64,000 nucleotides of DNA. It comes from an uncultured Bacteroidota bacterium (GTDB taxonomy: Bacteria > Bacteroidota > Bacteroidia > Bacteroidales > WCHB1-69). A program made the position numbers and the translations under genes. The notes under the pieces were generated by a model. It made no database searches, was not told the DNA's origin, and saw only the letters and a list, made by a program, of their open reading frames with translations. Within the stretch, counting starts at the first letter, position 1; each line of letters begins with the position of its first letter. Where the stretch lies: positions 262,202-326,201 of the forward strand of contig CADCNH010000001.1 of NCBI GenBank assembly GCA_902802755.1. The letters are read 5' to 3'. Shown piece after piece: positions 32,003 through 51,883 of the stretch.

Positions 32003-32028
32003 TTAGTAATCAAGAAAAATTCAGAACA

Positions 32029-32535: not shown

Positions 32536-32557
32536 TTGCCTGTATGAATCAAAAGGA

Positions 32558-32592
32558 ATCGGGCGGGTCGTAAGACCTGCCCGATTTTTGTT
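32558..32592 (+). terminator. rho-independent terminator of the hyd operon
   Basis: atcgggcgggtcgtaagacctgcccgat followed by a T-run. Confidence 0.8.
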
Positions 32593-32605
32593 TATTATTT
32601 GCGGA

Positions 32606-33001
32606 TTATTTTACGACGGGTTTGCCTGCTTGTTTCCATGCGGTAAGGCCTCCGTCTAAGTTATAGACTGTGCATCCTTGGGCTGCGAGTGTGTTGGCGG
32701 CGTTGAGACTGCGAACACCCCGGGCACAATAAACCGCTACGTTTCCTTTTACATTTTTGATTTTTTCGCTAAAATCGGCCGCTTTCACGTCAATGTTTTC
32801 CGCTCCTTTTATATGTCCTTCCGCATACTCTTTCGGAGTGCGGACATCGATGAGTCGTACGTTTTTCTTCGTAATTACCTTGGCAAATTCTTCTACTCCA
32901 ATGGTTGTAACTGTTCCTTTTGCGGTTTGTACGGAACTTTTGCCGGCGCCACATCCGCCCATCATTAAAGCGACCAGCACAATCATCAGTATATGTTTCA
33001 T
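32606..33001 (-). CDS. rhodanese-like sulfurtransferase lipoprotein
   Basis: 131 aa with lipobox MMGGC and active-site loop YCARGVRS. Confidence 0.85.
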   Translation of the reverse strand: MKHILMIVLVALMMGGCGAGKSSVQTAKGTVTTIGVEEFAKVITKKNVRLIDVRTPKEYAEGHIKGAENIDVKAADFSEKIKNVKGNVAVYCARGVRSLNAANTLAAQGCTVYNLDGGLTAWKQAGKPVVK

Positions 33002-33128
33002 CGTTTATTGGTTTTGGTAAGATTGATGCTGCAAAAATATTTTTTTTTCAATAAGACAGAAGTAATATGGAAAAATATTATTTTTGTAGTCTAAAAAAAT
33101 TGATTTTCAGCATATTTTTTGGGATACC

Positions 33129-35444
33129 ATGCAAGTTGCGAAAAAAATACTGGTATTACTGGTGATCTTGTGTGTCACAGGCCTGGCCTTGGGACAGCAG
33201 GTTGTCGATGGTGTCCATATAGGTTCGCCCCAAAGTTTTATGTATTTGACTCCCCAGACGGGAGGTGCTTCCAGCAACTGGGATGATTCATGGGTGAAAC
33301 CAATTTGTATTTTGTTTACTCAATCACACATAGGTATAGATACAGGCGCTTATCCAAGTCATCAATTCAGGGTATATGATTCTCAAAATCCTCAATCCCT
33401 TAACAACGATACTTGCTTCCGCAGTTGTGATGGGGAGGCTTTTAATAGACCAGTTTTGGCGGAAGCATGGGATTCGGACCTATACCCGGGAACTTTCGTG
33501 GATACTGTGATTCAATTAGGTACACCAGGAACTAGCGGTTCTGCTTCGGGGAAAAAAAGGCAACAGATTTTGTATTCTTTTGTGCCCGATACCAATAACC
33601 CAGTGCTGTTGGTGAACTTTGCTTTTGTGACAGAAGATGCCAGACACTTCTATGCGGGTGATCCTGGTTTTGAGTTGGCCGTGTTGCAACATGGTACTGA
33701 TAATTATTTGTCTTTGGGAAATTATGATGCTACCCATCCTTATTCCCGTTTCTGGTATAGAACACCAGGTGAAGCGGGAGACGAGGATCCCGACAATACA
33801 CCAGTGTTGCGACCCACGCAAAGTTGTCCCGTTGAACCGGGATGCCCATGCCAATATAATGTCGATAGTATTTTCACCTATCCCTATACTATTGTGGCTT
33901 TCGATTTGTCGGAGCAGGCTCGTGCCGGCCAAGCAGTGGATTTTCGTCTTGATGTATGGGGTTGTTATGGTAATTTTCATTGGTCTTATTGTTATTTTAC
34001 GGCCAAGATGGTTTCCGCCCAGTTAAAAGCGAAATATTGTGGCGGGGATTCGTTGAAATTGAGTGTTCCTTGGGGCTTTGACGAAGATACTTATGCTTGG
34101 TATAATGGACCGGATTCGGCTTCCACCACCACATCCAATTGGTTTGATCCGGATGATTCAAGTAGCCCCGTTGTGTTTCAGGGAAGCACCAAATATAATC
34201 CTATACTGCGTCCGAATCCCGCCAAGCCATACTACCGATGTGTGGTTCAGTCTTATACAGGTGTCCCCTTTGTTTATCAGGCTACGGTCAAATATTATGA
34301 TTTGAAGCCTTCTTTCTCTATTGAACCTAAAGCACTGACCAATGAGAAAAACTGCGACTATGGCGTGGTGCTGCATAATACCAGCAGTATAGGTGTTATT
34401 CAACCGAATGGCAACGGCGGGGTGGATACCATTTGGCAGGATCTGGAGATGCATCCCGATCAGTGTACATGGGATTTTGGTGATGGTACTCCTGCAGTGC
34501 ATGGTTTTGAGCCTGAACACATCTATGAGCAGCCAGGTACTTATACGGTGTCGCTATATATTGAGGATTACGAGAGAGAATGCAAATCAGTAACCATCGA
34601 TACCACCGTCACCATACTGCCAGAGTACATGGAAAAACAATATGCGGCAGATACGGTGAGTATCTGCGAGGGCAAGTTGCCGTATTATTACAAACCCGAA
34701 CTTTTTGGTTATGATAATGTGATTACCCGTTGGGACTTGAATGCTGTGGGCGATCGTCAGGTGAATTACACAAACGCATTACCTCAGTTTAATATCAGAG
34801 CCTGGAACGGTTGCGACAGTATTGTAAAGGTGCGCTTTGATGTGCAGAATCTGGCGGTAACCATCCAGCAGTTGGGCGATTTTTGTGACAGTGCCCAGAC
34901 TACGCTGGTGGCTCATGTGAGCAATATGCAGCAGAATGAGGTGGAATATACTTGGATTTATATGGACTCGGTGATGAGCACCACCGATGAGTTGTTGGCA
35001 CTGAGCGATGGAAGCTACTTAGTGAGCATCGTTGACCGCTCGACAGAATGTGAGGTGAAGGCTACATACAGGATAGAACCCTGTATGCCGGAAGTTTTTT
35101 TGCCGAACTGCATTACACCGACCCATAGTCCGAACGATGGCCCGGTGCAGAACGACTATTTCTATCTCGACCAGTTTGTGCTTCGGTTTATCTCTGAGGT
35201 GAAGTTTGTGGTATATTCGCGTTATGGCGAGGAAGTATTCTATTACGAAGGGAAGAAAAATACGGCTGGCGAGTTTGTTCCATCCACTCCATTTGCCAAC
35301 CTGCCCGCTGAAATGGATGGTCGTTTAGTGTTGTGGGATGGGAAAGTAAGGGGTAATGTGATCAGAGGTACCTACGTATATATGCTGTGGGTTGTCAGTG
35401 GCGGAAAACCATGTCTATACAAAGGAAAACTGACGGTGATATAG
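33129..35444 (+). CDS. secreted PKD-domain protein with T9SS type-B (gliding-motility-associated) C-terminal sorting domain
   Basis: 771 aa with a signal peptide, a PKD motif (WDFGDGTPAVHGFEPEHIYEQPGTYTVSLYI) and a C-terminal PNCITP...NDYF...GTYVYML tail. Confidence 0.8.
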   Translation: MQVAKKILVLLVILCVTGLALGQQVVDGVHIGSPQSFMYLTPQTGGASSNWDDSWVKPICILFTQSHIGIDTGAYPSHQFRVYDSQNPQSLNNDTCFRSCDGEAFNRPVLAEAWDSDLYPGTFVDTVIQLGTPGTSGSASGKKRQQILYSFVPDTNNPVLLVNFAFVTEDARHFYAGDPGFELAVLQHGTDNYLSLGNYDATHPYSRFWYRTPGEAGDEDPDNTPVLRPTQSCPVEPGCPCQYNVDSIFTYPYTIVAFDLSEQARAGQAVDFRLDVWGCYGNFHWSYCYFTAKMVSAQLKAKYCGGDSLKLSVPWGFDEDTYAWYNGPDSASTTTSNWFDPDDSSSPVVFQGSTKYNPILRPNPAKPYYRCVVQSYTGVPFVYQATVKYYDLKPSFSIEPKALTNEKNCDYGVVLHNTSSIGVIQPNGNGGVDTIWQDLEMHPDQCTWDFGDGTPAVHGFEPEHIYEQPGTYTVSLYIEDYERECKSVTIDTTVTILPEYMEKQYAADTVSICEGKLPYYYKPELFGYDNVITRWDLNAVGDRQVNYTNALPQFNIRAWNGCDSIVKVRFDVQNLAVTIQQLGDFCDSAQTTLVAHVSNMQQNEVEYTWIYMDSVMSTTDELLALSDGSYLVSIVDRSTECEVKATYRIEPCMPEVFLPNCITPTHSPNDGPVQNDYFYLDQFVLRFISEVKFVVYSRYGEEVFYYEGKKNTAGEFVPSTPFANLPAEMDGRLVLWDGKVRGNVIRGTYVYMLWVVSGGKPCLYKGKLTVI

Positions 35445-36193: not shown

Positions 36194-36490
36194 TCACATT
36201 CTCGAACTACAAATCCTATTTTTGTATTCTAAATATTTGCTGTGTTGTCCCCGACCATTTTTTAAGGTGAAAAAATTGCACCTTAAAAAATCATATTCTT
36301 CTTTTGTTAGCTCAAACATAAAATCTGTAGGAAATCGCACTATATTCATTCTTACTGCTCGCTTCAGATTTTTAGTCTCAATTCCATAAAGGGCGGCAAG
36401 GTCACTGTCAATCATTACATTTCTTCCACGTACATCATAGATAAATGGTTTTATACTGTCTGGACTAACTAGGTCAATTTTATTTTCCAT
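36194..36490 (-). pseudogene. truncated ORF6N (KilA-N-like DNA-binding) domain gene
   Basis: 98 aa. Aligns to the N-terminus of the 202-aa paralog at 60676-61284 up to GRGQHSKYL, then diverges and stops. Confidence 0.6.
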
Positions 36491-36703
36491 AAATATGAAT
36501 TTAAAACGTTTTATGCCCGCAAAGTTACAATATCCAAATCATAAAATCAATAGTAATAATACAGTTAATTTGCTTAAAATCAATACTTTGATAAATTGTA
36601 TTTTTTGTTCCAAAGGTGGACAAAACTGATGGAAAAGATGCATAAAAGCAGGGATAAATGTTTTGGGATTTTTCAAGAGTTGCAAGAAGGGAGGTGATGA
36701 ATT

Positions 36704-36762
36704 TTGGAAAAAAAAACATCCCTGATGCCGCATGTGTTGGTTATACCGACTTTCTTCCCCCT
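36704..36762. repeat. direct repeat copy B (~55 bp)
   Basis: ttttggaaaaaaaaacatccctgatgccgcatgtgttggttataccgactttcttccccctt. Confidence 0.85.
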
Positions 36763-37065
36763 TGGTAGAAATGTCTCCATGGTGTAGATTTTTCTCAGGC
36801 CGGAGGTTTGCGGGTATTGTGGATTTTACGGCAGAGCCCCAACCACCGCATTGGCGCGAACATAACCTACATACTACCCTCGTAGAGGGTTCAATATCAA
36901 TAGACGTTGGCGTTATCCCGTTATTTCCCTGCGGTGCGGGTGTTGTGTGCGCCGAAGCACGGAACAAGGCCACCGCGGAAGGGGTAAATTAGAGCTGATG
37001 CGGTAAATATCATGCTATTGCTGTGTCATAATTTTCCGAATGATTTTTCATTCACATTATTTTGT

Positions 37066-37101: not shown

Positions 37102-37785
37102 ATGACTAATGAGCCACATGAAGGGTATGTGTATATCCTTACAAATCAGAGTTTCAAAGAAGATTGGGTGAAAATAGGAAAGAGCTCTCGTCCTGTAGAT
37201 GTGCGCTCTAAGGAATTGGATAATACAGCAGTCCCGCTTCCTTTTGAGATTTACGCCACAATGAAAACCTGCAAATATAACGAGGTTGAGAAATTGGTAC
37301 ATAAAACAATTGACCGACTCACAGATTTGCGAATCCGACAGAATCGGGAGTTTTTCAATGTTGCGCCACAAGTAGCATTAGATATTTTCAGAGATATAGC
37401 TATTACGATAGATGATGCGGAAGTGACATTGTATGAGAATAACCAACCGATAAAAGAGTCAAAATCAAAAAACAAAGAAGAATCGGTACTAAAGCTGCAT
37501 AGTAAACATAATCCTCGTCCAAGGTTCAAATTCAGTATGGTGGATATCCCAATTGGTTCTACGCTGATTTTTATTCCTACTGGATTGCAAGTGAAAGTTG
37601 CCAGTGATGATCAAGTGGAATATGAAGGACGCATTTATAAGCTTTCACCATTTGTGGGAACATTTATGCCCGAAGAAAAGCGTAATACTTCCGGCTCATA
37701 TCAAGGTGCAAAGTTTTTTACATACCATGGCCGAGTATTGGATGATTTGAGAACGGAGAAGGAAAAAGAAATTGGAGAGGAATAA
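37102..37785 (+). CDS. GIY-YIG-like T5orf172 (MUG113) domain protein with DUF4357-like C-terminal domain
   Basis: 227 aa with GYVYILTN...VKIGKS...RSKEL...PFEI...REFF. The C-terminal FKFSMVDIPIGSTLIF...VEYEGRIYKLSPF resembles DUF4357 (from memory). Confidence 0.7.
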   Translation: MTNEPHEGYVYILTNQSFKEDWVKIGKSSRPVDVRSKELDNTAVPLPFEIYATMKTCKYNEVEKLVHKTIDRLTDLRIRQNREFFNVAPQVALDIFRDIAITIDDAEVTLYENNQPIKESKSKNKEESVLKLHSKHNPRPRFKFSMVDIPIGSTLIFIPTGLQVKVASDDQVEYEGRIYKLSPFVGTFMPEEKRNTSGSYQGAKFFTYHGRVLDDLRTEKEKEIGEE

Positions 37786-37819: not shown

Positions 37820-38818
37820 ATGGCAACAAACAAGAATGCACTGATTAGATACCAGGCTTTGGATAGATGTTTTAGCAATTATCGGAAGTGTTATTACATA
37901 GAAGATCTTATCGAGGCATGTAATAATGCCTTGTCCGAATATAACAGTAGCACATCGGGAGTTCAACGAAGACAGATTTTCGATGATATAAACTTTATGA
38001 AAGACCCTTTGGGTTATGATGCGCCTATTGAATCCATTAAAGACGGTAAGCGTGTTTATTACAGGTATTCTGATAAAGAATATACTATTAATAAACAGCC
38101 TTTAAACCCAGCTGAGGCTCAAGCATTAACAGATACTATTGCTATGTTGGGTAGGTTCAAAGGTTTGCCCAATTTTGAGTGGATGGAAGAAGTGACTGGA
38201 AAGTTGGAAACTGCTTTCAGTCTAAATGATTCTCCTGATAATATTGTTGGTTTTGATCAAAATATTGACTTAAAAGGTCTAAGATTCTTTGCTCCTTTGT
38301 TTGAATATATTGTTGCAAAGAAAACAATTCGAGTGAAATATACTCCCTTTAATAAGGATACCACAGAGATTGTTATTTCACCATATTATTTGAAGCAGTA
38401 CAATAATCGATGGTTTCTATTTGGGAAATGTCAAGGTTTCGATAATCTTACAAACATTGCGTTAGACAGAATAGACAACATTAAGGAGGGGAAAGAGCCT
38501 TTTGTTGAGAATACCACCTTTGACTTCAATGAGTATTTTGAAGATATTGTCGGGGTAACTCATCCTAAAGAAGGAAAAGAACAAAAAGTTGTTTTGAAAG
38601 TTGCAGATGATTTTTTAGGCTATTTTCTAACAAAACCCGTCCATGGTTCTCTAAAGAAACGGTCAACTAATATCTTTGAACTGAAACTTATCCCTAATTA
38701 CGAATTGGAAATATATTTGTTTAGTCATTCTGATAAAATAAAAGTACTCGAACCTGAATCTCTCAAAATTGCTATTCTCAACAGGATAGAAGAGGCTTTG
38801 GAATGTCAGGAAAAATAA
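37820..38818 (+). CDS. WYL-domain transcriptional regulator (BrxR/CapW-like)
   Basis: 332 aa. The N-terminal region looks wHTH-like. The central WYL core is ISPYYLKQYNNRWFLFGK, followed by a C-terminal WCX-like region. Confidence 0.8.
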   Translation: MATNKNALIRYQALDRCFSNYRKCYYIEDLIEACNNALSEYNSSTSGVQRRQIFDDINFMKDPLGYDAPIESIKDGKRVYYRYSDKEYTINKQPLNPAEAQALTDTIAMLGRFKGLPNFEWMEEVTGKLETAFSLNDSPDNIVGFDQNIDLKGLRFFAPLFEYIVAKKTIRVKYTPFNKDTTEIVISPYYLKQYNNRWFLFGKCQGFDNLTNIALDRIDNIKEGKEPFVENTTFDFNEYFEDIVGVTHPKEGKEQKVVLKVADDFLGYFLTKPVHGSLKKRSTNIFELKLIPNYELEIYLFSHSDKIKVLEPESLKIAILNRIEEALECQEK

Positions 38819-38825
38819 TTTTTAT

Positions 38826-38846
38826 CTGTGCATAATGACTGCACAG
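38826..38846. promoter_or_regulatory. perfect palindrome CTGTGCA-N7-TGCACAG (candidate operator or attenuator)
   Basis: Lies in the 80-nt gap between the WYL gene and the 1472-aa gene, just upstream of a weak TAttTTG-like box. Confidence 0.35.
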
Positions 38847-38898
38847 GTGTTTCGTTATTTTGCATCGTCAAATGATGTTGAATTTAATTTTTTGAGTC

Positions 38899-41800
38899 AT
38901 GAAAAATATTTCTTGGTCTGAAGATAAAGTTGTTTCAGTTATTAATGAGTTTAATGATGCTATTGAAAACTTGCGTGAAAAAACATCAGATTTCAAGCAT
39001 TTTGATTTTGTAAAGAGCTGTCTCTTATATATGAAACAGGCCAAGATGACGGATGCATGGGAAATCGAAGACAATATTATTGGATCTTCCATGTTGGATT
39101 ATTTCAATAAAATAACAAAATCGAAGAAAATCTCGATAAAAACAGATGATAGGCAAAAAACTGTTTTATTGCGGGATGAAATCCGCAATATATTTGATGC
39201 AACATTGGGCAAGATTCCACAAAATAAAATTAATATAGATTATTATAGGCGTCGATATATAATGAATCTGGCTATCTATTGTATCCTTAATTATGATAAT
39301 ATTGACATTTCCTCAAAACAAGATTTTTTAAAACTTGTGGATCTGTTAACTGAAACGAAAGATGCGGATAATAATTCAAAAAAAACATCTTCTCCTCATA
39401 AAATTTGGTATTTTAGTCAAGATTGTCATTTCTTTATAAAGGGGTTGGAATCCTTGATGGATTTTGTTTTCCTAAAAGAAGAAATATCATTGGAAAGTAA
39501 AATCACCTGTGAATTTAACAATCTTGAAGAAGCTTACCTGTTTTATCTTGCTTTTAGTGATGAAAAAGTAAATTTAACCTTGAAAAATTATACTGTTCTC
39601 ATAAATCAATCATCTGCTAGAGATTGTGAGAAGTTTGATGTTTATATCGACAACAATATTGATTATAGTCAAATTGATAATATAATGCGGAAACTAAAGC
39701 CTTCTGGTATTGTTGTTGCGGGATTGTCAAAGCCTATTATTAAAGGCGAGAATAATGATGTGAGAAAATTATTTGACAATCAAATGGTTAGATGTGTTAA
39801 GACTAATGGAGTTGATAGAGGTTGGTTAAAAATAAACATCAACGATAAAAAATATTATTCCGTAGATTTTTATTCATTGGAGGGTGAATATTATCGGTAT
39901 ATTATGTATGATGACATAGTTAAATTAAACTATTCTTTGGATATTGACAAATACCGTGTTCTCGAAAAAATTGATGAATTTATAGAAATTACAGATGCCC
40001 TTCCTATTGGTGAGCGACTCACCAGTGGAATACAATTTATTATTCCTTATTTCAAGAAAAATTACAAAGATTTGCTTGAAAGATGGTTGGATGGTATAAA
40101 TGATTGGGATGTCATTAAAGAGCAATGTAAGAATTATAAAGATTGTTCGGCAAGAATCCAAGTAATAGAAGCTTTCTTATATTTTCATGATTGTATTTGT
40201 GATGAGGAATATCTCAATGATGCCAAATATCAGCAGTTTCTTAATGCTATAAGAATTATTGACTCAATTGATAATGATACTTTCCAGAGATACTACCTTG
40301 ACATTATCGAACGGTTATGTAAGAACAATATCAGTGATTTTTACATGTCTCAATATCAATTTATTGAATCCCAATTAAAGGATGTCGAGAAGTCGAAAGT
40401 TGTCATTAGAAAGGATCAATTTGCTAAATTTCTTTATCCAGGAGAAATGTCTTCCAGACAAATAATATCAACAGGGGAATATGTTCTCGAATGGAGCAAT
40501 ATTCTTAATCCTCGGGCTTTAAAAGCTCAGAACATAGAAGTTGGAATGTTCGTTGATAATGATCAGCTAGAAAGTTCTATTTGTACTGCTACACAATATA
40601 TTATTTTCAATGCATATAATAATAAGTTTTATGAAATTGACCACAATGATGATTGGATGACGGATGTAATTATTGACATTCATAATGATATTCGTGGTAT
40701 AAGTTACCATTTTGATTCCTATGAAAACGATGATACTTCTATATTAGTGGAACTTAATCCAGGCGGAACATTAGTGAACTTTGTGATGAAAAAAGATTTG
40801 GAAGAATGTCAAGACATAATTGAATATTACATCACAAACAACCTCATTGAAAAAGTTATTAGCCTTAACAATCGCTATCTGCTTTTTATTTCGAAAGATA
40901 AGAAAGATGACAAAGTTATTTTAGCGAAGTTCAACCATATAGACGATGAAAGATGGATGGAATCCTATCCAGCAATGATAGAAGAGTTGGCTTTGCAAAA
41001 AGACACCCAACATGTGAGAATCTTGTCGAATGAGGATTTTGCAAAAAATAACTATTCACTTTCCACTGAACATTACTTTACAACTGAGGTGTCCACCGGT
41101 GTAGAGACCATTCTTCACTCCATAGTGTCACGACATCGTGGAAAATATGCCTTGATAGACATTCTTCTGAATGTGTTAGTGAGAATCGGCACACTATACC
41201 ATCAAGGGGATGAGGATTCCTTCATCAATTCTCTTGATGTAAAGAAGTTAAGTGAGGTGTATGACAGTTTGCAGGAATATGAAGAATATTTGATGGATCA
41301 TTACAGAGAATGTGTTGATGCCATTATCAATATCTTTGGTTCAGAAGATGCTTCGTACGAATTTTTTCAACCTGAGGTGGCGAAATTAATGGTGGCACTC
41401 CAAGGTTCCAACAAAATTCAGAAGTTGTATAATCCATTTGCTGGCCCAGCCACTTTCTCGTGTTTTTTGCCAGAGTCCATTTATTGTGGTAATGAAATCA
41501 ATAAGTCCATTCATACATTAGGTTTATTCAGGTTAGATGCCCACGGATTGGATCAGCAAGGATTTCATTGTGAGGACTCGGTAGATTTTGTACAATTACT
41601 TCCTAATAAGGAAAAGTATGATACGATTCTTTCTATTCCGCCTTTTATACCCAAAGAGGAGCAATCTCTGTATAGTTTTCTGTTTGATGAATGTATGTCA
41701 CATCTGAAGAAAACCGGCAAAATGACCATTGCTGTTCCTGCAGGTTTCACATTCAATAGCTCACCCAAAATGCAGGCTATTCGTCAAAAACTCGTTGAGA

Positions 41801-43317
41801 ACAATTGGGTAGAAAAAGTGATAGCTTTACCCAAAGGCAGTTTCCGAGGAACTAATGTGGGCACATGCTTGATTCAGTTTTCAAAGAAGTCTAATCGTGA
41901 AGTGCTATTCTGTGATGCGACTCAAATGGTTAAGCACAATAGAAATAAAGTAGAAATTCAAACTGACGATATTGTTGCTGCAGTCAAAAATATAGATACC
42001 GACTATTGTTATAGTATTTCTTATTCAGAGATTATCAACAACAACTATTCTATTAATCCCATCGTGTATAAACCATCCCCAACACAAGAAGGATTGACTA
42101 CATTCAAATTGGGTGACTTAATGACAAGTGTTCAACCTGAGAAATTTTCTGATGATACAGGATTGATTTTCTCTCCAGACTTGCTTTCATCTGATGTGGT
42201 GGATTACCATAGAACATTATCGGATTTAAAAATGGATTTTCTCAACGATTTGATGGTAAAAGTGCAGGGTGAGGCATTATTACTTTCGTCCATTCAAGGT
42301 TCCTTAAAGCCCACATACTTGGAGGTTAGTCCGGATGTTTGTTATTATGTTAATCGCAACATTCTGGCCTTCAAAGTAGATACAAATAAGGTATTGCCCG
42401 CTTATTTATGCTATGCATTAACTCAGCCAGAAGTATTACACCATATTGACTTTTTTAGAACTGGTGTTATTGCCAATATTATTTCTGATGATTTATTAAA
42501 CATCCATATCAATTTGCCAAAATTATCTGCACAAAGAAGCATGGTTTATGAAGTTTCTCGCCAGCGATATGCGGAGAAAAAACAGGAACTTGCCATGATG
42601 TATGGGACCGCTTATACGGAGAAAGAGGAAGAGTTTAAGTCCTTGAGGCATGCCATGCGTCCTTCTGTGACAGGTATTAGCTCCGCTGTAGATAATCTAT
42701 ACAACTATTTTGAAAAAACGGGGCAGTTATCCACAGTTGTCCATGGGCGCAGAGGATCAACTATTGCGGATAAACTTGCTGTGATTAAGAATGAAATTCA
42801 TCATATATCTGTTCTTATTAAACAAGGTGCCGATTTTTTGGATATTTCAAAATATCCATTGACTTCAGTAACTGTTGGAGACATCTGGAATCATGTGAAT
42901 TATGAGACAGAAAAATTTACTATCAGTAAATCAAAGTCTTTGGTTGATACCATAGCAGATTTTACTGTCAGGATGAATCTTGATTTGTTTAAGATGTTAA
43001 TTAATCTCATTATGTCAAACGCAGAGGTGCATGCTTTCTCAAATAATGATTCTGCAAATAATGTTCGAGTAGAAGCCACTTGTGATAACGAATCGCTTAC
43101 AATGTATATATCCAATAATGGAAAACCATTTCCCAAAGATGTGGATATCAAAAATTTCACCAAGAGATATTGGTCTGCAGGAGAACATGGGGGCAGTGGA
43201 GTAGGTGGAAATGATATTCTGAAAATCATGATGGCTTTTCAAGGCAAGTTTGAGCTTAAAACCGCTTACAAGGATTCATACCCAACATGCTATGTGTTAA
43301 AATTCCCTATTGAATAG
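38899..43317 (+). CDS. giant multidomain protein: 2 degenerate MTase-like modules + N6-adenine-MTase-like module + HsdS-type TRD + histidine-kinase transmitter (HisKA-like + HATPase_c)
   Basis: 1472 aa. Motif I LYNPFAGPATF (41431-41457). Motif IV-like SIPPF (41632-41646). TRD hallmarks FKLGDL, NRNILAFKV and INLPKLSAQRSMV. H-box SLRHAMRPSVTGI (His at 42649-42651). N box LIMSNAEVHAF. G boxes SNNGKPF and GGSGVGG. Confidence 0.75.
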   Translation: MKNISWSEDKVVSVINEFNDAIENLREKTSDFKHFDFVKSCLLYMKQAKMTDAWEIEDNIIGSSMLDYFNKITKSKKISIKTDDRQKTVLLRDEIRNIFDATLGKIPQNKINIDYYRRRYIMNLAIYCILNYDNIDISSKQDFLKLVDLLTETKDADNNSKKTSSPHKIWYFSQDCHFFIKGLESLMDFVFLKEEISLESKITCEFNNLEEAYLFYLAFSDEKVNLTLKNYTVLINQSSARDCEKFDVYIDNNIDYSQIDNIMRKLKPSGIVVAGLSKPIIKGENNDVRKLFDNQMVRCVKTNGVDRGWLKININDKKYYSVDFYSLEGEYYRYIMYDDIVKLNYSLDIDKYRVLEKIDEFIEITDALPIGERLTSGIQFIIPYFKKNYKDLLERWLDGINDWDVIKEQCKNYKDCSARIQVIEAFLYFHDCICDEEYLNDAKYQQFLNAIRIIDSIDNDTFQRYYLDIIERLCKNNISDFYMSQYQFIESQLKDVEKSKVVIRKDQFAKFLYPGEMSSRQIISTGEYVLEWSNILNPRALKAQNIEVGMFVDNDQLESSICTATQYIIFNAYNNKFYEIDHNDDWMTDVIIDIHNDIRGISYHFDSYENDDTSILVELNPGGTLVNFVMKKDLEECQDIIEYYITNNLIEKVISLNNRYLLFISKDKKDDKVILAKFNHIDDERWMESYPAMIEELALQKDTQHVRILSNEDFAKNNYSLSTEHYFTTEVSTGVETILHSIVSRHRGKYALIDILLNVLVRIGTLYHQGDEDSFINSLDVKKLSEVYDSLQEYEEYLMDHYRECVDAIINIFGSEDASYEFFQPEVAKLMVALQGSNKIQKLYNPFAGPATFSCFLPESIYCGNEINKSIHTLGLFRLDAHGLDQQGFHCEDSVDFVQLLPNKEKYDTILSIPPFIPKEEQSLYSFLFDECMSHLKKTGKMTIAVPAGFTFNSSPKMQAIRQKLVENNWVEKVIALPKGSFRGTNVGTCLIQFSKKSNREVLFCDATQMVKHNRNKVEIQTDDIVAAVKNIDTDYCYSISYSEIINNNYSINPIVYKPSPTQEGLTTFKLGDLMTSVQPEKFSDDTGLIFSPDLLSSDVVDYHRTLSDLKMDFLNDLMVKVQGEALLLSSIQGSLKPTYLEVSPDVCYYVNRNILAFKVDTNKVLPAYLCYALTQPEVLHHIDFFRTGVIANIISDDLLNIHINLPKLSAQRSMVYEVSRQRYAEKKQELAMMYGTAYTEKEEEFKSLRHAMRPSVTGISSAVDNLYNYFEKTGQLSTVVHGRRGSTIADKLAVIKNEIHHISVLIKQGADFLDISKYPLTSVTVGDIWNHVNYETEKFTISKSKSLVDTIADFTVRMNLDLFKMLINLIMSNAEVHAFSNNDSANNVRVEATCDNESLTMYISNNGKPFPKDVDIKNFTKRYWSAGEHGGSGVGGNDILKIMMAFQGKFELKTAYKDSYPTCYVLKFPIE

Positions 43318-43356
43318 CAATGGAGTAACAAAAGTTAGTAATATAAAACAGTTATT

Positions 43357-44532
43357 ATGTCATATAAAGTATTATGGGTGGACGATGAATATGACACCCC
43401 GGCTTTACAAGAAGTTGCTGATTTAGCCTATGATAGAGGCATTAATATGGAAACCGGATGCAAATCAGCGGAAGAAGCATTGGCTCACTTGGAACATCCA
43501 AATGATTTTGACGCAGTAATTTTAGATGCACGATTCTTCAAATCAAAAAATGATACTATTGAAAGTCTTGGGAGGATGAAAGGACTACGGGAAGTAACAA
43601 AACGAATAGAACAATTAAAATCAGGCGGTTGTTATTTGCCTACATTTATCTATTCAGGTCAACCTGAGATATACAAGACAGAAGATTATTCTGACAATTA
43701 TGGGGAATATCCGTTGTTTCCTAAAGATGACGAAGGCACATATAAACTTTTCGATGCTATCATTAAAACGGTAAATGAAAGGGTTGAAACACAAATAAAA
43801 CTGAAATATGCCCCACTCTTTGATGTATGTGTTCCACGATATATGTTCAATTCTAATCTGACAGAACGACTATTGAATTATGCGGGACAACTTGAGCATA
43901 ATGATACGAAAAAAGTTGAGTATCTGAATGATATGAGGAAGCTAATAGAAGAGTTTTTTGGAAAATGTGAAGACGTTAGGCTTTTACCTTCCGGTTTAAC
44001 ATCGTGGACTGACAAAAGTAAGTTTCTGTGTGAAATTAAGATGCAAAAATTTATTCCAGCGTATGTCCAAGAATCCATCCGATTCATCCTCCGATGCACC
44101 CAAGAAGGATCCCATTATAGTGTTGCAGATTCTGATATGCGTAATGGAGTATCTCCTTTTTTGTTTCGCTCTTTGTTCTTCTCACTTTCTAATGTATTAG
44201 TTTGGTGGAAACAGTTTATTGACAGTAATCCAGATAAAGAGGAAATCAGTAAAGTTGTTATGGAGGATGGTCAGAACCAACAAGAAGTAAAATATTCAAA
44301 AGTAGAATTAAAGGGAGAAAAGGTCAAAGAATTTCAACCACAATCTAATAGTTATTTGGTTGAAAAGGATGATGAGGGATATTACCACTGTGGACCATAT
44401 CTGATGTCTCAAAAACATGGGAGCATCGTTGTAGGCAAAAAAGTTGTTATTGTTGAAGAAGAGGACAACACAAATTCAAATAGTCAAATATATCCCAAAT
44501 TTGCAAAACAGGTAAAAGTGGTGGGTAAGTGA
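43357..44532 (+). CDS. receiver (REC) domain protein with uncharacterised effector-like C-terminal region
   Basis: 391 aa. VLWVDDE acidic pair, AVILDARF (D57, nt 43525-43527), FIYSGQ and LFPKD. Middle region has RCTQEGSH (44092-44115). The C-terminal ~75 aa has a cold-shock/OB-like pattern. Confidence 0.7.
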   Translation: MSYKVLWVDDEYDTPALQEVADLAYDRGINMETGCKSAEEALAHLEHPNDFDAVILDARFFKSKNDTIESLGRMKGLREVTKRIEQLKSGGCYLPTFIYSGQPEIYKTEDYSDNYGEYPLFPKDDEGTYKLFDAIIKTVNERVETQIKLKYAPLFDVCVPRYMFNSNLTERLLNYAGQLEHNDTKKVEYLNDMRKLIEEFFGKCEDVRLLPSGLTSWTDKSKFLCEIKMQKFIPAYVQESIRFILRCTQEGSHYSVADSDMRNGVSPFLFRSLFFSLSNVLVWWKQFIDSNPDKEEISKVVMEDGQNQQEVKYSKVELKGEKVKEFQPQSNSYLVEKDDEGYYHCGPYLMSQKHGSIVVGKKVVIVEEEDNTNSNSQIYPKFAKQVKVVGK

Positions 44533-44757: not shown

Positions 44758-45780
44758 ATGGCAAAATCATCTTCAATTGATAGAAACGACTTGATGTTTT
44801 TCGAAATATGCGGAAGACAATACAAACTGACAGAATATGACGATGCAATTAAAGAAAATGAGGAATCACTAGCAAATTACTATTCTTTCCTCCAAGAGTT
44901 TCCTTATACAATCAGAAAATTATCTAGAGAATCGTTAGCATCGATTAAGGATGCTCCTGTTTTTTTGTTATATCGTAACAAAAGGATAAGTGTGTATGAA
45001 TTTCTTATAAGTAGCCGACTCTTTGAATCTCAACTTTCTCTTATTAAAGAAATCAACGGTCTAGAAATAAAATATGGATTGGCTAATAAGTTGATTGATA
45101 TACAGCAAAAAAAAGAAAATTATGCTATAAAAATAGAAACATATAGAGTCTTTCAGGATTTACATTATACAATGGCAACGGCCCGATGGGCATTAATACA
45201 GGCACATCGTATATTACATTTCAGTAGTAGTTTAAAATGGATAACAGGTTGGGAACAACTTTGGACACGTGCCACATGGTTAAACAATGCAATTCTTTTA
45301 TACAACTCCTGCTTTGACAAGTTGATATTATCAATATGGATTGGTTGTAAGGTTTTTGTTGGTTATTTAAAGAAAAATAGTAAGCCAGAAAAGGCACTCA
45401 ATATACAAAACTTAAATTCACAGGAAGGATTAAATCTGGTATATGAATGGTGTGATTATAATAAAATTAAAAATCGCTTGCCAGAAAAAATAAAAAACGA
45501 TATTAACTTAAAATATACAAACGAGCTAAAAAGAGTGAGAAATTATGCCAATAGAATTAAACACAGGGGTGGTATGAGATATAAAGACTTGTTTCCTTAT
45601 GACAATACTTACGATATTATTGAAGACACATTCTATGCTTCTACAAGAACACAAATATCTGATGATATAGATGATATTGTGGAAGAAGTGAAGAATTATC
45701 ATATTGTCTTATATGATTTGATACAAAAAGTTTATGAATACATTATAGGAGAAGTGTTTGATCAGGAGATTCATGAATAG
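44758..45780 (+). CDS. hypothetical protein (all-helical; possible HEPN-like C-terminal half)
   Basis: 340 aa, AT-rich. It has an LKRVRNYANRIKHRG helix, but the R-to-H spacing is outside the canonical Rx4-6H. Confidence 0.55.
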   Translation: MAKSSSIDRNDLMFFEICGRQYKLTEYDDAIKENEESLANYYSFLQEFPYTIRKLSRESLASIKDAPVFLLYRNKRISVYEFLISSRLFESQLSLIKEINGLEIKYGLANKLIDIQQKKENYAIKIETYRVFQDLHYTMATARWALIQAHRILHFSSSLKWITGWEQLWTRATWLNNAILLYNSCFDKLILSIWIGCKVFVGYLKKNSKPEKALNIQNLNSQEGLNLVYEWCDYNKIKNRLPEKIKNDINLKYTNELKRVRNYANRIKHRGGMRYKDLFPYDNTYDIIEDTFYASTRTQISDDIDDIVEEVKNYHIVLYDLIQKVYEYIIGEVFDQEIHE

Positions 45781-45814: not shown

Positions 45815-46474
45815 TTATATTGACATATTCTTCCACTTCTCGGGGATTCTGAAAGATTTATCACCGGCAGTAACTACATCATCCATAATGGATTTCAGGA
45901 ATCGGGGTAGGTTGTTTTTCATCAAGACAGGCTTGCTACGGTGCTGCAATAGCTTGTCTTTTATGTCATAACTATAATTTGTTGGGGGAAAATATACCTT
46001 GATGTTTTTCTGAGGAAATAATCTCTGTATATAGTCCAAAGGAGGGATAAGGTCGCTATCGGCACTCACTAAAGCTACTGTGTCTGTTTTGTCTTCCATG
46101 CAATCAGCTAACATTCGTACCGAAATGTTCACATCTGTTCTTTTCTCTTCTGGCTTTGAAATCGTCGCATTGCAGAAAGGGCAAGGGAAATATTTTTCCA
46201 TGTATTGTCCTCTAACAATCTCAAATTTTTCTCCGTTAATTAGTTTGTTTGCGTTAAGAAAAGAACTTTGACGACTGTTTTTTGACGGATTCATCGGACT
46301 AGCGGTAAAATAGACAACTTTTTCAAGTGTTTGATTTTCCCCAAGGAAACTCTCGCACAGTTTTACAACATCAATCCAATAACATTTTCCCCAATTTCTG
46401 TCTATGCTACGGGCTCGTTTAATTCCAAAATAGAAATTAAAACCATCAATATAGAAGGTAACTCTCTTTGTCAT
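45815..46474 (-). CDS. NYN (LabA-like PIN-fold) domain protein
   Basis: 219 aa with FYIDGFNFY, EKRTDVNISV and LVSADSDLIPP, plus a CPFC insert. Confidence 0.8.
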   Translation of the reverse strand: MTKRVTFYIDGFNFYFGIKRARSIDRNWGKCYWIDVVKLCESFLGENQTLEKVVYFTASPMNPSKNSRQSSFLNANKLINGEKFEIVRGQYMEKYFPCPFCNATISKPEEKRTDVNISVRMLADCMEDKTDTVALVSADSDLIPPLDYIQRLFPQKNIKVYFPPTNYSYDIKDKLLQHRSKPVLMKNNLPRFLKSIMDDVVTAGDKSFRIPEKWKNMSI

Positions 46475-46724: not shown

Positions 46725-48197
46725 ATGGATGGTAACCCTATGAAAGACGATACTCCCCGAATCCCTTGGCTCATCGCATTGGTGCCTTTTGCGGTGCTGG
46801 TGCTATTGCAGGTACTTGTGATCAAGCATTTTGGCTCCGACGCTATCGACGGGGCCAGCCAGACGGCATTGCTCTTTTCCGCCGCGGTGGCCATCGCTAT
46901 CGCCATGGTGGGCTACAAGGTGAGCTGGAAGACCATCAATGGGGCGATTGGCGACAACATCAAAACCATCGGCCCCGCCGTGCTGATTCTGTTTTTGATC
47001 GGTGCCATTTCAGGCAGCTGGATGATGAGCGGGGTGGTGCCTACCATGATATACTACGGCATGAAGGTCATCACGCCTTCACTCTTCCTTTTCATGGCTT
47101 GCCTAATTTGCGCCCTGGTGTCGTTGATAACGGGCAGCTCGTGGACGACTGTGGCTACCGTTGGTATTGCCTTGATTGGTATTGGCACAGCACACGGCTT
47201 TTCGGCGGGGTGGACAGCAGGCGCTATCATCTCGGGCGCATACTTCGGCGACAAGATTTCCCCGCTTTCTGACACAACGGTATTAGCTTCTTCGGTGGGC
47301 GAAGTGCCCCTGTTCAAGCATATTCACTATATGCTCATCACTACCGTGCCTTCTTTCACGATTGCACTGATTATTTTCTTGGTGGTGAGCCTGAACCATT
47401 CGGCTGCAAGTGGTGCCCAGGCGGCTTCTTTTGCCGAAGGACTGCAAAACAGCTTTGTCATCAGTCCCTGGTTGCTGTTAGTTCCGCTCTTTACCGCTAT
47501 CCTCATTGCTTTGCGCCTGCCAGCGGCTGTTATCCTGTTTTTGTCGGCTCTGGTGGCGGGAATGGTCATGCTGGTGGCCCAACCCCACATCGTGACACAA
47601 ATAGGGGAGGGCAACAATTTTCGTGGTTTGATGCTCACTTACTATAGCAGCACTTCCATCGATACGGGCAATGAAACGCTTACAAATCTGGTGCAAACCC
47701 GTGGTATGAAAGGCATGCTCAGCACAGTATTCCTCATTTTCTGTGCTTCCGCTTTCGGCGGCGCTCTCACCGGAGGCGGCATGATGAAGAGTCTCACCGG
47801 AGCATTAGCACGTGGCATTAGCGGCCGCCGCTCGTTGGTGACTACCACAGTGGGTACAGGTCTTTTTGCCAACATGGCCACAGGTGACCAATATCTCAGC
47901 ATTGTGCTCACAGGTAATATCTACAAGCAGCTATACAAAGATATGGGCTTTGAGGGGCGTTTGTTGAGCCGTTCCACAGAAGACTCTGCCACGGTTACCT
48001 CTGTGCTCGTTCCCTGGAACACCTGCGGTATGACGCAATCCATGGTGCTGAAAGTTCCCACATTAGAGTTCTTGCCTTACTGCTTCTTCAATCTCATCTC
48101 CCCGCTAATGTCCATCACTGTCGCTTTCATTGGCTATAAGATTTTCCGTCGTACTGATGATGAAGAAACAGAGGAATCAACAACGACAATCGATTAG
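46725..48197 (+). CDS. nhaC: Na+/H+ antiporter NhaC family
   Basis: 490 aa, ~11 TM helices, NhaC-like conserved blocks. The start may be at 46740. Confidence 0.85.
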   Translation: MDGNPMKDDTPRIPWLIALVPFAVLVLLQVLVIKHFGSDAIDGASQTALLFSAAVAIAIAMVGYKVSWKTINGAIGDNIKTIGPAVLILFLIGAISGSWMMSGVVPTMIYYGMKVITPSLFLFMACLICALVSLITGSSWTTVATVGIALIGIGTAHGFSAGWTAGAIISGAYFGDKISPLSDTTVLASSVGEVPLFKHIHYMLITTVPSFTIALIIFLVVSLNHSAASGAQAASFAEGLQNSFVISPWLLLVPLFTAILIALRLPAAVILFLSALVAGMVMLVAQPHIVTQIGEGNNFRGLMLTYYSSTSIDTGNETLTNLVQTRGMKGMLSTVFLIFCASAFGGALTGGGMMKSLTGALARGISGRRSLVTTTVGTGLFANMATGDQYLSIVLTGNIYKQLYKDMGFEGRLLSRSTEDSATVTSVLVPWNTCGMTQSMVLKVPTLEFLPYCFFNLISPLMSITVAFIGYKIFRRTDDEETEESTTTID

Positions 48198-48234
48198 TAC
48201 GGAAAGTCTGTCCTGACGTATCGCATAACAAGGA

Positions 48235-48266
48235 TGAAAAAAAAGGCGACCATCAGGCCGCCTTTT
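48235..48266. terminator. bidirectional terminator between nhaC and gatD
   Basis: aaaaaaaaggcgaccatcaggccgccttttt: A-run, GC hairpin, T-run. Confidence 0.65.
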
Positions 48267-48281
48267 TCTGTCTCTACAAGG

Positions 48282-49757
48282 TTATTTTCTAACCTTCTTC
48301 ACAAACTCTTCTACTTCGGGAACACCGCCTTGATAGACGAGGTAGCCGTCGTAGGGCTCGCGTTTGGTGATTTCGTCGTTGATGGGGGTGAGCATCAGCT
48401 TCTTCACATCCTCGCGCTTCTGGCCGCTGTCCTTGGTCAAACCTAATGCCCAGCCGAGCTTGATGTAAGAGCTTTCCGCTAACATGTTGTCTGCGGGGAT
48501 GATACCGCGTGCCATCATGTCACGGCCGGTGTCATACACAAACATGTGAGTGTAACCCCAGATGGTCTGTACACTCATGTATTGGTGAACACCAGCGTCA
48601 GTAGCTTTCTGGATGGCATCGTACATGACCTTATTGACATGACCGAGGCCGGTGCCGTCCCAAACAATGCCTTTGTAGCCATTGTCGATGAGGGCTTCCA
48701 GCACATCGGGTTTCATACCTGGATAGTAGTACAGAATGGCTACACGGTCGTCGAAAGTCGGCACAATACGGGTGACATTCGGGTCGTTGATGGCAAGGCT
48801 ACGCTTGTAATCCTCGTAGTTGGTGATAACTTCCACTTGGCGGTGCTGTCCTTTGCGGCGGTGGTTGTACACTTCCTTGATGGGCTGTACGCCATCGCGG
48901 CGATTCACGGTAGCCAGCGGTGTGTCGCCAATGGTACGGAAAGTGGAGCGGTAAGAGCTGTGCATCTTACGTACACGCGTGCCACGATGCAGGAAACCGT
49001 AGTCGTCGCTGGTGGGACCGAACATGCAGACCATCACCTCGGCGATGTCACCGTGACCAGCAGCGGTCATGGCGTGCATCAGGTTCAAAGCGGCATCGGA
49101 GCTGGGACGGTCAGAAGAACGTTGTGAACCCACCAATACCACTGGCATGGGCATATTCTGGCACATGTAAGTCAAAGCGGCAGCAGTGTGAGCCAAAGTA
49201 TCGGTACCGTGACCAATTACAATACCCTCGATACCAGCCTTGATTTCATCACCAATTTTGTTGGCCAAAGCCATATATTCTTTCGGGGACATGTTCTCGG
49301 AGAATACAGCGAAAACTTTCTCGGTCTCCAAGTTGCAGATGTCGGCCAGTTCGGGCACAGCACCATACAATTCGCCGGGAGAGAATGCGGGAATTACCGC
49401 ACCCGTACGGTAGTCCAAACGGGAAGCGATGGTACCACCAGTACCTAACAGTTTTACGTGGGGCAGACCGGGAGTGTAGGGGAATTCCTTCTCCGGAATC
49501 TTGAAAACGGGCTGCGGGTCGCGCTCGCCTTTCATGTCGGTGATGGTGTCAATGTCAATACCGATATTGTAACCGGTGCTGACTTTCATCACAATGTGGA
49601 TGTCGTCGGTGTTTTCCGCACGGGGCAGAATCTTTCCCGAGAAATGTCCGCGGGTGGTTTCCACTTCGGCTTTGTCCCACACGTGAACGTCGTATTTTTT
49701 GAGCGTTTCTAATGCGCGTCCCTTATATCCTTGGAATGTTTTTTTATCGTCGTCCAT
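48282..49757 (-). CDS. gatD: archaeal-type Glu-tRNA(Gln) amidotransferase subunit D (GatD)-like; asparaginase-family
   Basis: 491 aa. GatD-type N-terminal domain (GKILPRAENTDDIHIVMKVSTGYNIGI). Asparaginase motifs LGTGGTIAS and GHGTDTL. Confidence 0.75.
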   Translation of the reverse strand: MDDDKKTFQGYKGRALETLKKYDVHVWDKAEVETTRGHFSGKILPRAENTDDIHIVMKVSTGYNIGIDIDTITDMKGERDPQPVFKIPEKEFPYTPGLPHVKLLGTGGTIASRLDYRTGAVIPAFSPGELYGAVPELADICNLETEKVFAVFSENMSPKEYMALANKIGDEIKAGIEGIVIGHGTDTLAHTAAALTYMCQNMPMPVVLVGSQRSSDRPSSDAALNLMHAMTAAGHGDIAEVMVCMFGPTSDDYGFLHRGTRVRKMHSSYRSTFRTIGDTPLATVNRRDGVQPIKEVYNHRRKGQHRQVEVITNYEDYKRSLAINDPNVTRIVPTFDDRVAILYYYPGMKPDVLEALIDNGYKGIVWDGTGLGHVNKVMYDAIQKATDAGVHQYMSVQTIWGYTHMFVYDTGRDMMARGIIPADNMLAESSYIKLGWALGLTKDSGQKREDVKKLMLTPINDEITKREPYDGYLVYQGGVPEVEEFVKKVRK

Positions 49758-49783
49758 ATCAGTTTACAATTAACATTTTACAA

Positions 49784-51745: not shown

Positions 51746-51798
51746 ATATTTTGATTTTAGTTATTTGACAATAGAATGTCCTAAAATTTTTTAAGGCA

Positions 51799-51806: not shown

Positions 51807-51883
51807 ATAAAATTATGGAATGCCACCGCAAAAAAAAAACTCTCCTTGTTATCTGTTCCCTGAAACCTGTAACCTGTCCCCTG

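Follow-up and report, generated by a model that had tools for sequence, protein, structure and literature searches.

The stretch analysed here, a window of 64,000 nt of contig CADCNH010000001.1 from an uncultured Bacteroidota bacterium, contains three co-directional open reading frames (ORFs) on the + strand, at 37820-38818, 38899-43317 and 43357-44532 (all positions are window coordinates). They are separated by 80 nt (genes 1 and 2) and 39 nt (genes 2 and 3) and code for proteins of 332, 1472 and 391 aa, respectively. An initial annotation, made from the sequence alone, had presented them as a candidate defence cassette in an AT-rich island, composed of a WYL transcriptional regulator (gene 1), a giant sensor in which methyltransferase (MTase)-like modules and a target-recognition domain (TRD) are fused to a histidine kinase (gene 2), and a receiver-domain protein (gene 3). 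The coordinates and gaps proved exact, all motif strings quoted for the three genes were found at their codons in the translations, and the GC content was 0.30-0.37 across ~36-46.5 kb as compared to 0.45-0.50 outside, with the cassette within this trough. The cassette is real and conserved, and is apparently an undescribed signalling unit.

The C-terminal part of the sensor (42544-43317) had been read as a histidine-kinase transmitter, and this reading was upheld by the predicted fold and by conservation. In the AlphaFold2 (AF2) model of aa 1060-1472, pLDDT averages 67.7, the TRD being confident, the catalytic and ATP-binding (CA, Bergerat) domain moderate and the dimerisation and histidine phosphotransfer (DHp) domain poor. 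It consists of a beta-rich TRD, a ~65-residue helix of low pLDDT that extends from the TRD past the H-box, another helix and, lastly, an alpha/beta sandwich. When this model was compared to the PDB using Foldseek, nearly all of the top 50 matches were histidine-kinase DHp+CA cores, the best being WalK/YycG (4zki; E 1.7e-10, TMt 0.67); HK853, CpxA, an EnvZ chimera and CusS were also found, and the matches at E <= 1e-3 numbered 333 in total. The best match of the sensor family profile among PDB sequences was again HK853 (E 0.06), collinear over 180 residues, and in this profile alignment His1251 (nt 42649-42651) falls on His260 of HK853. The boxes LIMSNAEVHAF, SNNGKPF and GGSGVGG are present in gene 2 where they had been placed. 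His1251, the N-box Asn, the G1 box (NNGxP) and the G2 box (GxGxG) are invariant across the giant homologs, which are 46-98% identical, and the phospho-acceptor His is unchanged in every sensor, even in relatives of 19-32% identity. The Pfam HATPase_c model was matched above threshold in the sensors of three related loci (L009, L010 and L012; loci are numbered with L throughout). The C-terminus thus models as a class I DHp+CA histidine kinase of an atypical kind.

Gene 3 begins with a domain (43357-43776) that had been described as a CheY-like receiver (REC) with D57 as phospho-acceptor. The strings VLWVDDE and AVILDARF, the second containing D57 (nt 43525-43527), are both present in the protein. 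Its AF2 model has a pLDDT of 80.6 and an N-terminus folded as (beta-alpha)5, and its Foldseek matches in the PDB are mostly receiver domains (PorX, RssB, DesR and PhoP), with TMt 0.6-0.72 for the isolated receiver. No match to gene 3 was obtained with the Pfam Response_reg model. The receiver signature is complete (D9/D10, D57, S/T100 and K123), and D9, D10, D57 and K123 are invariant across regulator homologs of 31-88% identity. Among 117 family representatives selected at 50% identity, D57 and K123 are each found in 117/117, D10 in 115/117 and D9 in 111/117. Two homologs are labelled 'response regulator' by NCBI. Both the fold and the conserved acidic pocket bear out the receiver assignment, and since the kinase His and the receiver pocket are jointly invariant, which is the main argument, kinase activity of the sensor is considered likely.

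The remainder of gene 3 (43783-44532) is modelled as a helical domain (aa ~143-315), a disordered linker and a small C-terminal beta-barrel (aa ~332-388). The initial annotation had noted that it does not look like a standard HTH output, and no HTH signature was indeed detected even at E 10. It had also called the protein an effector, a designation that found no support, the output domain being without a recognisable fold or family: no match was found in Pfam (E 10), PHROGs, PADLOC, NCBIfam or PDB sequence profiles, and no Foldseek match in the PDB or BFVD was attributable to the output domain, REC-like matches dominating both lists. Ten family members that were checked likewise gave no Pfam match in this domain. 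Two residues of the output domain, R194 and H253, are invariant in the family and lie in NxxRK and (Q/N)xGSH motifs, respectively. A HEPN reading, based on the spacing R246-x6-H253 that is reminiscent of Rx4-6H, was rejected, as R246 is found in only 9/117 representatives and the invariant R194 lies 59 residues away. An exhaustive search with the output-domain profile retrieved 640 representative clusters, 325 of them at E <= 1e-10. Nearly all members of this regulator family are 360-410 aa long, with an output domain that starts near residue 140, and no regulator homolog was found in the phage collection.

Upstream of the kinase, the sensor contains an HsdM-type module of the gamma-class N6-adenine MTases (41266-42081) followed by a single HsdS-type TRD (42082-42543), in agreement with the initial annotation. 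The Pfam N6_Mtase model matched aa 863-1058 with E 4e-19, and HsdM structures, e.g. EcoR124, were matched at E 5e-13 with the single sequence and 1e-18 with the profile. Motif I reads NPFAGPATF from codon 845, NPFAGPA replacing the DPAAGSG of EcoR124 HsdM, and Glu866 of motif II is retained. Motif IV is degenerate: it reads SIPPF (codons 912-916, nt 41632-41646), and in an alignment to EcoR124 HsdM at E 4e-15, I913 falls on the catalytic Asn of NPPY. The same motif is non-canonical in 21/22 kinase-fused homologs. It reads IPPF, ILPF or TPPF in the 12 giants, whereas 10 shorter sensors, described below, have TPPF (twice), NAPF, NPPL, VLPF, DLPF, APPF, AVPA, a fully degenerate sequence, and NPPF in a single case (L012). 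The stand-alone HsdM proteins encoded next to such cassettes have NPPF in 4/4 cases. The sensor therefore lacks the catalytic (N/D)PP(F/Y/W) that defines a type I MTase while the fold and motifs I and II are present, and the module is, as judged from its motifs, a catalytically dead pseudo-enzyme that serves as a sensor. Because the catalytic Asn/Asp is replaced in 21/22 members, it would be unable to mark self DNA.

The TRD has a confident beta-rich fold in the AF2 model, and PADLOC models for Type I MTase and Type I Specificity matched the sensor at aa ~1077-1232, the latter with E 9e-7 to 3e-3. A word-indexed search with a profile of the TRD and kinase retrieved fragments, HsdS proteins with PF01420 and one GAF-HisKA kinase. 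Among the giants, the mean identity of the TRD is 0.56 versus 0.58 for the MTase module, the kinase being the most conserved region of the sensor (0.73-0.74). A hypervariable TRD as in restriction-modification (R-M) or BREX systems was rejected on these figures, as the identity of the TRD equals that of the MTase module. The possibility that the sensor TRD reads the site of a neighbouring type I system was likewise unsupported, as it is not preferentially similar to the TRDs of the cis-encoded HsdS. Both results speak against a sequence reader diversified for telling self from non-self. Unmethylated 'non-self' sites are disfavoured as the signal, because self would carry no mark and the TRD shows neither diversification nor a match to the HsdS next to it.

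No nuclease, helicase or PglZ/BrxC was detected in the sensor or the island by Pfam, PADLOC and profile searches, and no HsdM, HsdS or HsdR was detected elsewhere in the 64-kb window. The statement that the window holds no HsdR-type partner, and that the unit is not an ordinary R-M enzyme, therefore holds.

The N-terminal ~790 aa of the sensor (38899-41265) comprise the segments N1 (aa 1-380) and N2 (aa 380-760) and a short helical lead-in to aa 790. This region had no match in Pfam, PHROG or PDB sequence profile searches. Two degenerate MTase-like modules had been proposed in the N-terminal ~830 aa, and the proposal was weakly supported. Three motif blocks (D-V-x-I-D; L-x-P-x-G followed by V-E/D-K-V-I-S/A-L; and N-Y-S-L-x-x-x-Y) are collinear in N1, N2 and the MTase module, and the N2-like segment of the L009 homolog matched, by BLAST, N2 at E 1e-7 and the MTase module at E 8e-4. 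However, hhalign comparisons of N1 and N2 to the MTase module were collinear but weak (P ~0.01-0.02; all <5%). It is plausible from these motifs that the N-terminal region contains two decayed MTase-like modules. N1 (38899-40038) is the most variable region of the sensor among the giants, with a mean identity of 0.37 and indels, and could represent a second, fast-evolving input surface.

Homologs of the cassette were searched in several collections, and the loci compared were obtained by context look-ups and a metagenome scan and annotated with local profiles. The giant sensor has 12 full-length homolog clusters of 46-98% identity in the indexed protein collection. The pattern scan of the genome collection gave at least two GTDB species, both represented by metagenome-assembled genomes (MAGs) of rumen Bacteroidales, among the matches listed, and two metagenome contigs, L013 (Ga0265299_10012108) and L014 (LXOW01234672.1), carry regulator genes identical or 99% identical to that of the window, for which a rumen Bacteroidales genome is thus the probable source. 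The order WYL gene, giant sensor, regulator was found in 14/14 giant-type loci with both flanks, which substantiates the claim of a conserved co-oriented unit in a defence island, and the sensor gene is directly upstream of the regulator gene and co-oriented in every locus with flank. This order is also kept in L008, where a 1569-aa sensor that is only 29% identical is flanked by an integrase and a resolvase. The L009 (1398-4412) and L010 (250-3249) loci encode ~1000-aa sensors with an N2-like module, a TRD and a histidine kinase and without an N6_Mtase module; there the order is sensor, regulator, WYL gene, and the regulators are 31-33% identical to that of the window.

Remote regulators are each directly preceded by a gene for an ~820-900-aa protein with N6_Mtase, TRD and HATPase_c (L011, L012, L029, L039, L040, L041 and L042, and the RefSeq plasmids Myroides pFM-G13 and Fulvitalea pFA12). 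The N-terminal region of the giants is missing from these short-form sensors of ~830 aa. The short form is the common architecture, and the giant of the window represents a rumen-Bacteroidales subfamily with an N-terminal extension of ~760 aa. A WYL gene usually adjoins the short-form cassettes too; in L040, its place is taken by a gene with HTH_3 and peptidase_M78 (4720-5745), a pair akin, by its domains, to CapH+CapP; these proteins, like CapW, regulate immune operons next to them upon DNA damage. The taxa named for the family are Bacteroidales, Rikenellaceae, Flavobacteriales, Myroides, Fulvitalea and one Tissierellia MAG, and the Myroides cassette is located on a mobilizable plasmid. In public databases, the Myroides and Bacteroidales sensors are named 'N-6 DNA methylase', the Fulvitalea sensor 'type I restriction-modification system subunit M' and the plasmid regulator homologs 'hypothetical protein'. 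Defence-type genes neighbouring the related cassettes include AbiJ, patatin, HEPN, RhuM, Schlafen, GmrSD and CBASS-like genes.

Routine pairing of the homologs with HsdR-like nucleases, which would have counted against the initial annotation, was in part observed, as a complete and co-oriented type I operon follows the regulator directly in ~15/22 loci with enough flank. Such an operon was found in 7/13 giant-type loci with enough flank (L003/4, L016, L017, L019, L020, L022 and L023) and in the short-form loci L011, L012, L029, L037, L039, L040 and L042, and a partial one in L028. The neighbouring type I system is convergent in L038, and no downstream type I operon is present in the window, L001, L005, L006, L008, L021 and L041. 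The distance between the regulator gene and hsdM is -4 nt in L012 (overlap), 2 nt in L040 and 7 nt in L028, and linkage at gaps of -4 to 69 nt is observed in L012, L028, L040 and L011. The downstream operons carry their own HsdM (with NPPF), HsdS and HsdR. Because the R-M operon is self-complete, the fused module dead and the cassette able to persist without R-M, the cassette is not an ordinary R-M variant. Its family is best regarded as a module associated with type I R-M, of which the copy in the window is a stand-alone case. The type I operons often hold additional cargo between hsdM/hsdS and hsdR, namely DUF1016/YhcG, GmrSD, a PLD-like nuclease or unknown ORFs (L011, L012, L016, L019, L029, L037, L039, L040 and L042).

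Gene 1 (37820-38818) codes for a WYL protein in which the string RWFLFG is present. The Pfam WYL model was matched at E 4e-11 and PADLOC WYL models at E 6.5e-24; WCX scored 19.8 bits, below its cutoff, and is above cutoff in several orthologs. It had been described as BrxR-like; the WYL domain was confirmed, whereas the likeness to BrxR is architectural only, the closest solved relative being PafBC (E 1.2e-4) and the match to CapW not being significant (E 0.63). No HTH was detected in gene 1 by Pfam. As with BrxR and CapW, a WYL (+WCX) protein heads a defence-type operon and a conserved inverted repeat is present, here between the WYL gene and the sensor gene; the cassette protein differs from them in having neither a significant CapW match nor a Pfam HTH. 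BrxR homologs have been reported beside BREX, type IV and type I R-M systems, and BrxR binds inverted repeats.

The 80-nt spacer between the WYL and sensor genes (38819-38898) was compared to its equivalents in L001, L003, L005, L006, L008, L021, L023, L024 and L027. Its mean column identity is 77%, which is above that of the flanking proteins. Close behind the WYL stop codon, it contains a hairpin or inverted repeat (38827-38847, + strand; terminator-like match at 38823-38849), the pairing of which is kept in the 10 loci: 95.7% of the cells pair, with 4/7 pairs changed on both sides, as compared to <=43% in slid controls. Next to it lies the candidate promoter or operator motif GTTATTTTGCATCGTCAAA (38854-38872, + strand), ~27 nt 5' of the sensor ATG, in which the box TTATTTTGCAxCGTCAAA (38855-38872) is invariant or nearly so among loci whose encoded proteins are only 29-62% identical. 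These features would fit a terminator/attenuator, or a WYL operator beside a promoter for the sensor-regulator pair. The spacer between the sensor and regulator genes is likewise conserved in six loci. A sigma-70 promoter scan, the model of which is unsuited to Bacteroidota, showed no enrichment (47 versus 43.6 in shuffled sequences).

The cassette was compared to known systems, to which the initial annotation had predicted no match or only a partial MTase match. In PADLOC, only WYL and R-M models were matched, and the cassette is not described in PADLOC (known systems up to 2023), Pfam or NCBIfam. No HsdM/TRD-kinase fusion and no such regulator family were described in the full texts searched, a coverage that leaves out most subscription journals. 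The combination had been put forward as unlike any described system; this appears to be the case for the fusion itself, but R-M plus two-component defence has a validated precedent in Ambrosia (AbrR-AbrA-AbrB-AbrC-AbrD), the nearest known system besides Detocs, which was shown by experiment to act against phages and in which the D60A substitution in the REC domain abolishes defence (bioRxiv 10.1101/2025.09.30.679545). Its five genes code for an XRE regulator, an MTase, a histidine kinase/HATPase, a REC-wHTH protein and a type IV HNH nuclease, and it occurs in Gammaproteobacteria, mainly Pseudomonadales (10.1101/2025.09.30.679545). Ambrosia was the only described system found that unites R-M and two-component modules in one cluster, and, like the cassette, it places an N6-adenine MTase, a REC regulator and a histidine kinase/HATPase under the control of a transcriptional regulator of their own. 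By gene content, however, the cassette is not an Ambrosia system, as it has WYL in place of XRE, a fused MTase-kinase, no wHTH and no HNH, whereas in Ambrosia the MTase and kinase are separate, the regulator is REC-wHTH, an HNH nuclease is present and no TRD is reported.

In Detocs (DtcA/DtcB/DtcC), a cytoplasmic kinase phosphorylates a ~390-aa REC-effector, and mutants of the His or Asp lose defence (bioRxiv 10.1101/2023.01.24.525353). The likeness is that a two-component phosphorelay itself acts as defence system; the differences are that DtcA senses by TPR repeats, that DtcB, a REC-only buffer, is required and that the effector is a PNP-type ATP nucleosidase. None of the three cassette proteins gave a Detocs match in PADLOC, and the cassette has no REC-only gene. 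Divergent kinase-like and receiver-like genes, the Response_reg_2/HEF_HK pairs, are tightly linked within each pair and enriched next to R-M genes (Bellieny-Rabelo et al. 2021, PMC8011034). They consist of PF19192, and of PF19191 with HATPase_c_3 (paraMORC), and occur mainly with type II systems and C5-cytosine MTases (PMC8011034). They differ from the cassette in having no MTase or TRD fusion, and no match to PF19192 or PF19191 was found in it (E 0.01 for whole proteins, E 10 for parts). The type I HsdM2-HsdS1 core, including the dimers of half-HsdS, also resembles the sensor, the MTase-like module of which aligns with HsdM and the TRD with HsdS models, and a long helix follows the TRD as in the HsdS conserved region; the sensor differs by the loss of NPPF, by having one TRD per chain and by the fused kinase, and no HsdR is present in the window. 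Type IIG, type ISP and BREX PglX proteins combine an active MTase and TRD with a nuclease, a helicase or a BREX core, and the sensor does not have this composition. Kinase signalling in defence is also found in Pgl, which has the Ser/Thr kinase PglW and the active adenine MTase PglX. PrrC, an anticodon nuclease without a kinase, is an abortive or back-up module wired to the type I R-M locus EcoprrI.

Taken together, these results make it probable (about 0.8) that the cassette is a phosphorelay with an R-M-derived sensor. The fuller mechanism, a WYL-regulated cytoplasmic two-component cassette with a sensor derived from the DNA-recognition core of a type I MTase, is held at about even odds. In this mechanism, the WYL protein would probably repress the operon via the conserved spacer upstream of the sensor gene. 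The sensed signal should be intracellular, since the three cassette proteins have no hydrophobic segments (maximum KD 1.29). Dimerisation through the DHp domain, as in class I kinases, would place a pair of HsdM-like modules and a pair of TRDs side by side in a clamp resembling M2S1, with the DHp bundle taking the place of the HsdS coiled coil, and the occupancy of the clamp would be relayed along a continuous TRD-DHp helix to His1251. DNA in a state that is absent from the host DNA would be the most likely ligand, with modified adenine as a candidate that may fit the now-hydrophobic pocket, although DNA state as the signal is put forward only tentatively. The ligand would switch the autophosphorylation of His1251, from which the phosphoryl group would move to D57, and the phosphorylated regulator might then change its oligomeric state and activate the helical/beta-barrel output. 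This output could act directly on the cell or phage, or turn on neighbouring defence genes. In its most specific form, in which the pseudo-MTase flips an adenine of a fixed target into its hydrophobic pocket to detect a foreign modification or its absence, and thereby gates a His-Asp relay to a new class of effector, the mechanism is possible but less than probable. A reader of foreign modification is conceivable because the Asn that usually forms a hydrogen bond with N6 has given way to a hydrophobic residue.

Several observations weigh against this interpretation. For the kinase, HATPase_c scored 20.5-24.4 bits at aa 1368-1470 of the window sensor versus a Pfam cutoff of 26.4, and the pLDDT of the DHp model is below 50. 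The G1 box is N-N-G-x-P in every member, so that Asn replaces the adenine-contacting Asp of GHKL ATPases, and the residue after the phospho-acceptor His is A, S or T in most members, not Glu or Asp. With regard to the input, the TRD does not vary more than the remainder of the sensor and is unrelated to the TRDs of neighbouring HsdS, and the HsdM-like module must be dispensable in at least one branch, as the L009 and L010 sensors lack it. As for the output, neither a catalytic nor a DNA-binding fold can be recognised in its domain, the pI of which is close to neutral (~7-8), and the tight type I linkage would fit a regulatory accessory role equally well.

Such an accessory role, in which the regulator would be a new transcription-level or RNA-level regulator or a modulator of HsdR and the cassette would serve the neighbouring defence genes by turning the type I operon or other cargo downstream up or down, is a serious but doubtful alternative. 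It would be comparable to the two-component arm of Ambrosia or to restriction alleviation. The type I operons directly downstream of the regulator, the hsdM of which is sometimes translationally coupled to the regulator gene as shown by the 4-nt overlap and the gaps of 2-7 nt, would be accounted for. So would the variety of genes found at this place without R-M, i.e. the 340-aa unknown of the window, HTH+HEPN in L001, RhuM in L005 and an RmuC-like gene in L006, which suit a regulator with swappable cargo, and the Ambrosia two-component pair does control the expression of R-M-like genes. However, the output has no HTH or known nucleic-acid-binding signature at E 10, its pI is ~7-8, its invariant Arg and His are more suggestive of a site for catalysis or ligand binding, the cassette persists by itself in defence islands and the WYL protein already provides a dedicated repressor. 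The same linkage to complete type I operons could also mean that the sensor is a guard or decoy for anti-restriction proteins. Its dead HsdM+TRD clamp would mimic the M2S1 core of type I enzymes and be bound by DNA mimics of the Ocr/ArdA type, or perturbed by other anti-R-M factors, which would set off a back-up response while type I restriction is being disabled. Ocr and ArdA are phage DNA-mimic inhibitors of type I enzymes, and PrrC provides a back-up to EcoprrI. Loss of catalysis with retention of the fold, a TRD without the hypervariability that a constant ligand would make unnecessary, and its lack of specificity-level similarity to the neighbouring HsdS would all be in line with a decoy, and the variable N1 could be the arms-race surface. 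This explanation is nevertheless rather unlikely, as stand-alone copies such as that of the window lack any type I system in 64 kb that they could guard and as the L009 and L010 sensors are without the HsdM-like module, which should be the main contact of such mimics.

Two further explanations dispense with a phosphorelay or with defence and are both very improbable. If the sensor were a functional R-M or orphan MTase of type IIG-like organisation, with the GHKL domain as a MORC-like ATPase motor or clamp and gene 3 as an unrelated neighbour, the N6_Mtase and Eco57I-type Pfam matches, the RefSeq/NCBI label 'N-6 DNA methylase' of homologs and the NPPF kept in the L012 short form would be explained. 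This is opposed by the loss of the motif IV Asn/Asp in 12/12 giants and 9/10 short forms, by the absence of a detectable nuclease domain in the sensor in Pfam and profile searches, by a C-terminus that matches class I DHp+CA over ~250 columns and not MORC, GyrB or MutL, and by the fact that neither the His nor the receiver pocket encoded in the always-adjacent gene varies. A housekeeping or epigenetic signalling system outside defence, or a decaying remnant, would not be expected in a variable island of low GC that has conserved housekeeping genes on either side and lies beside PADLOC candidate defence genes, nor with a patchy distribution that includes plasmids and integrase-flanked elements, and the long intact ORFs and the strong conservation of catalytic-type residues over 29-98% identity also argue against it.

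Detocs and Ambrosia were the only described examples of two-component phage defence found, and the signals of their kinases are unknown. The phosphorelay proposed here has a recognisable input domain, the DNA-recognition core of a type I MTase with its chemistry off, which gives a concrete hypothesis for the signal, i.e. a DNA state or an anti-restriction protein, and makes the cassette a tractable system for studying the conversion of an enzyme to a receptor. The regulator defines a family of ~640 clusters with an uncharacterised output domain, and its frequent placement directly before type I operons suggests that one of the commonest bacterial defences has a layer of control or back-up not recognised before, above all in the Bacteroidota of gut and rumen. 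If DNA state were indeed read, this would be the first demonstrated case of a histidine kinase that senses DNA in immunity, and the cassette would form a widespread signalling layer over type I restriction in Bacteroidota.

The island around the cassette contains several other genes. On its left side are an ORF6N gene (36194-36490, - strand; PADLOC PDC-S05, Pfam/PADLOC match), an ORF without family match (36539-36973, - strand) and a T5orf172/MUG113 gene (37102-37785, + strand) that is a PADLOC candidate of type PDC-S57 (E 1.6e-69). On its right side are a 340-aa ORF without family match, termed gene 4 (44758-45780, + strand), and a NYN-domain gene (45815-46474, - strand; PADLOC HEC-09, E 3e-50). 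Gene 4 was considered as a fourth component of the cassette and rejected, as the downstream genes of six loci are mutually dissimilar. The island is flanked on the left (28404-35444) by NADH-dependent [FeFe] hydrogenase genes, a rhodanese gene and a gene for a PKD/CHU_C (T9SS) protein, and on the right (46725-52871) by NhaC, GatD and GatE-like genes and a tyrosine recombinase gene at 51981-52871. In related MAGs, the same housekeeping flanks enclose other defence cargo, and the island is therefore a variable chromosomal defence hotspot. The PDC-S57-type gene ends 34 nt before the start of the WYL gene. Its product is 96% identical between the window and L001 (6206-6889), whereas the adjoining sensors are only 62% identical, which suggests that recombination may have occurred inside the island.

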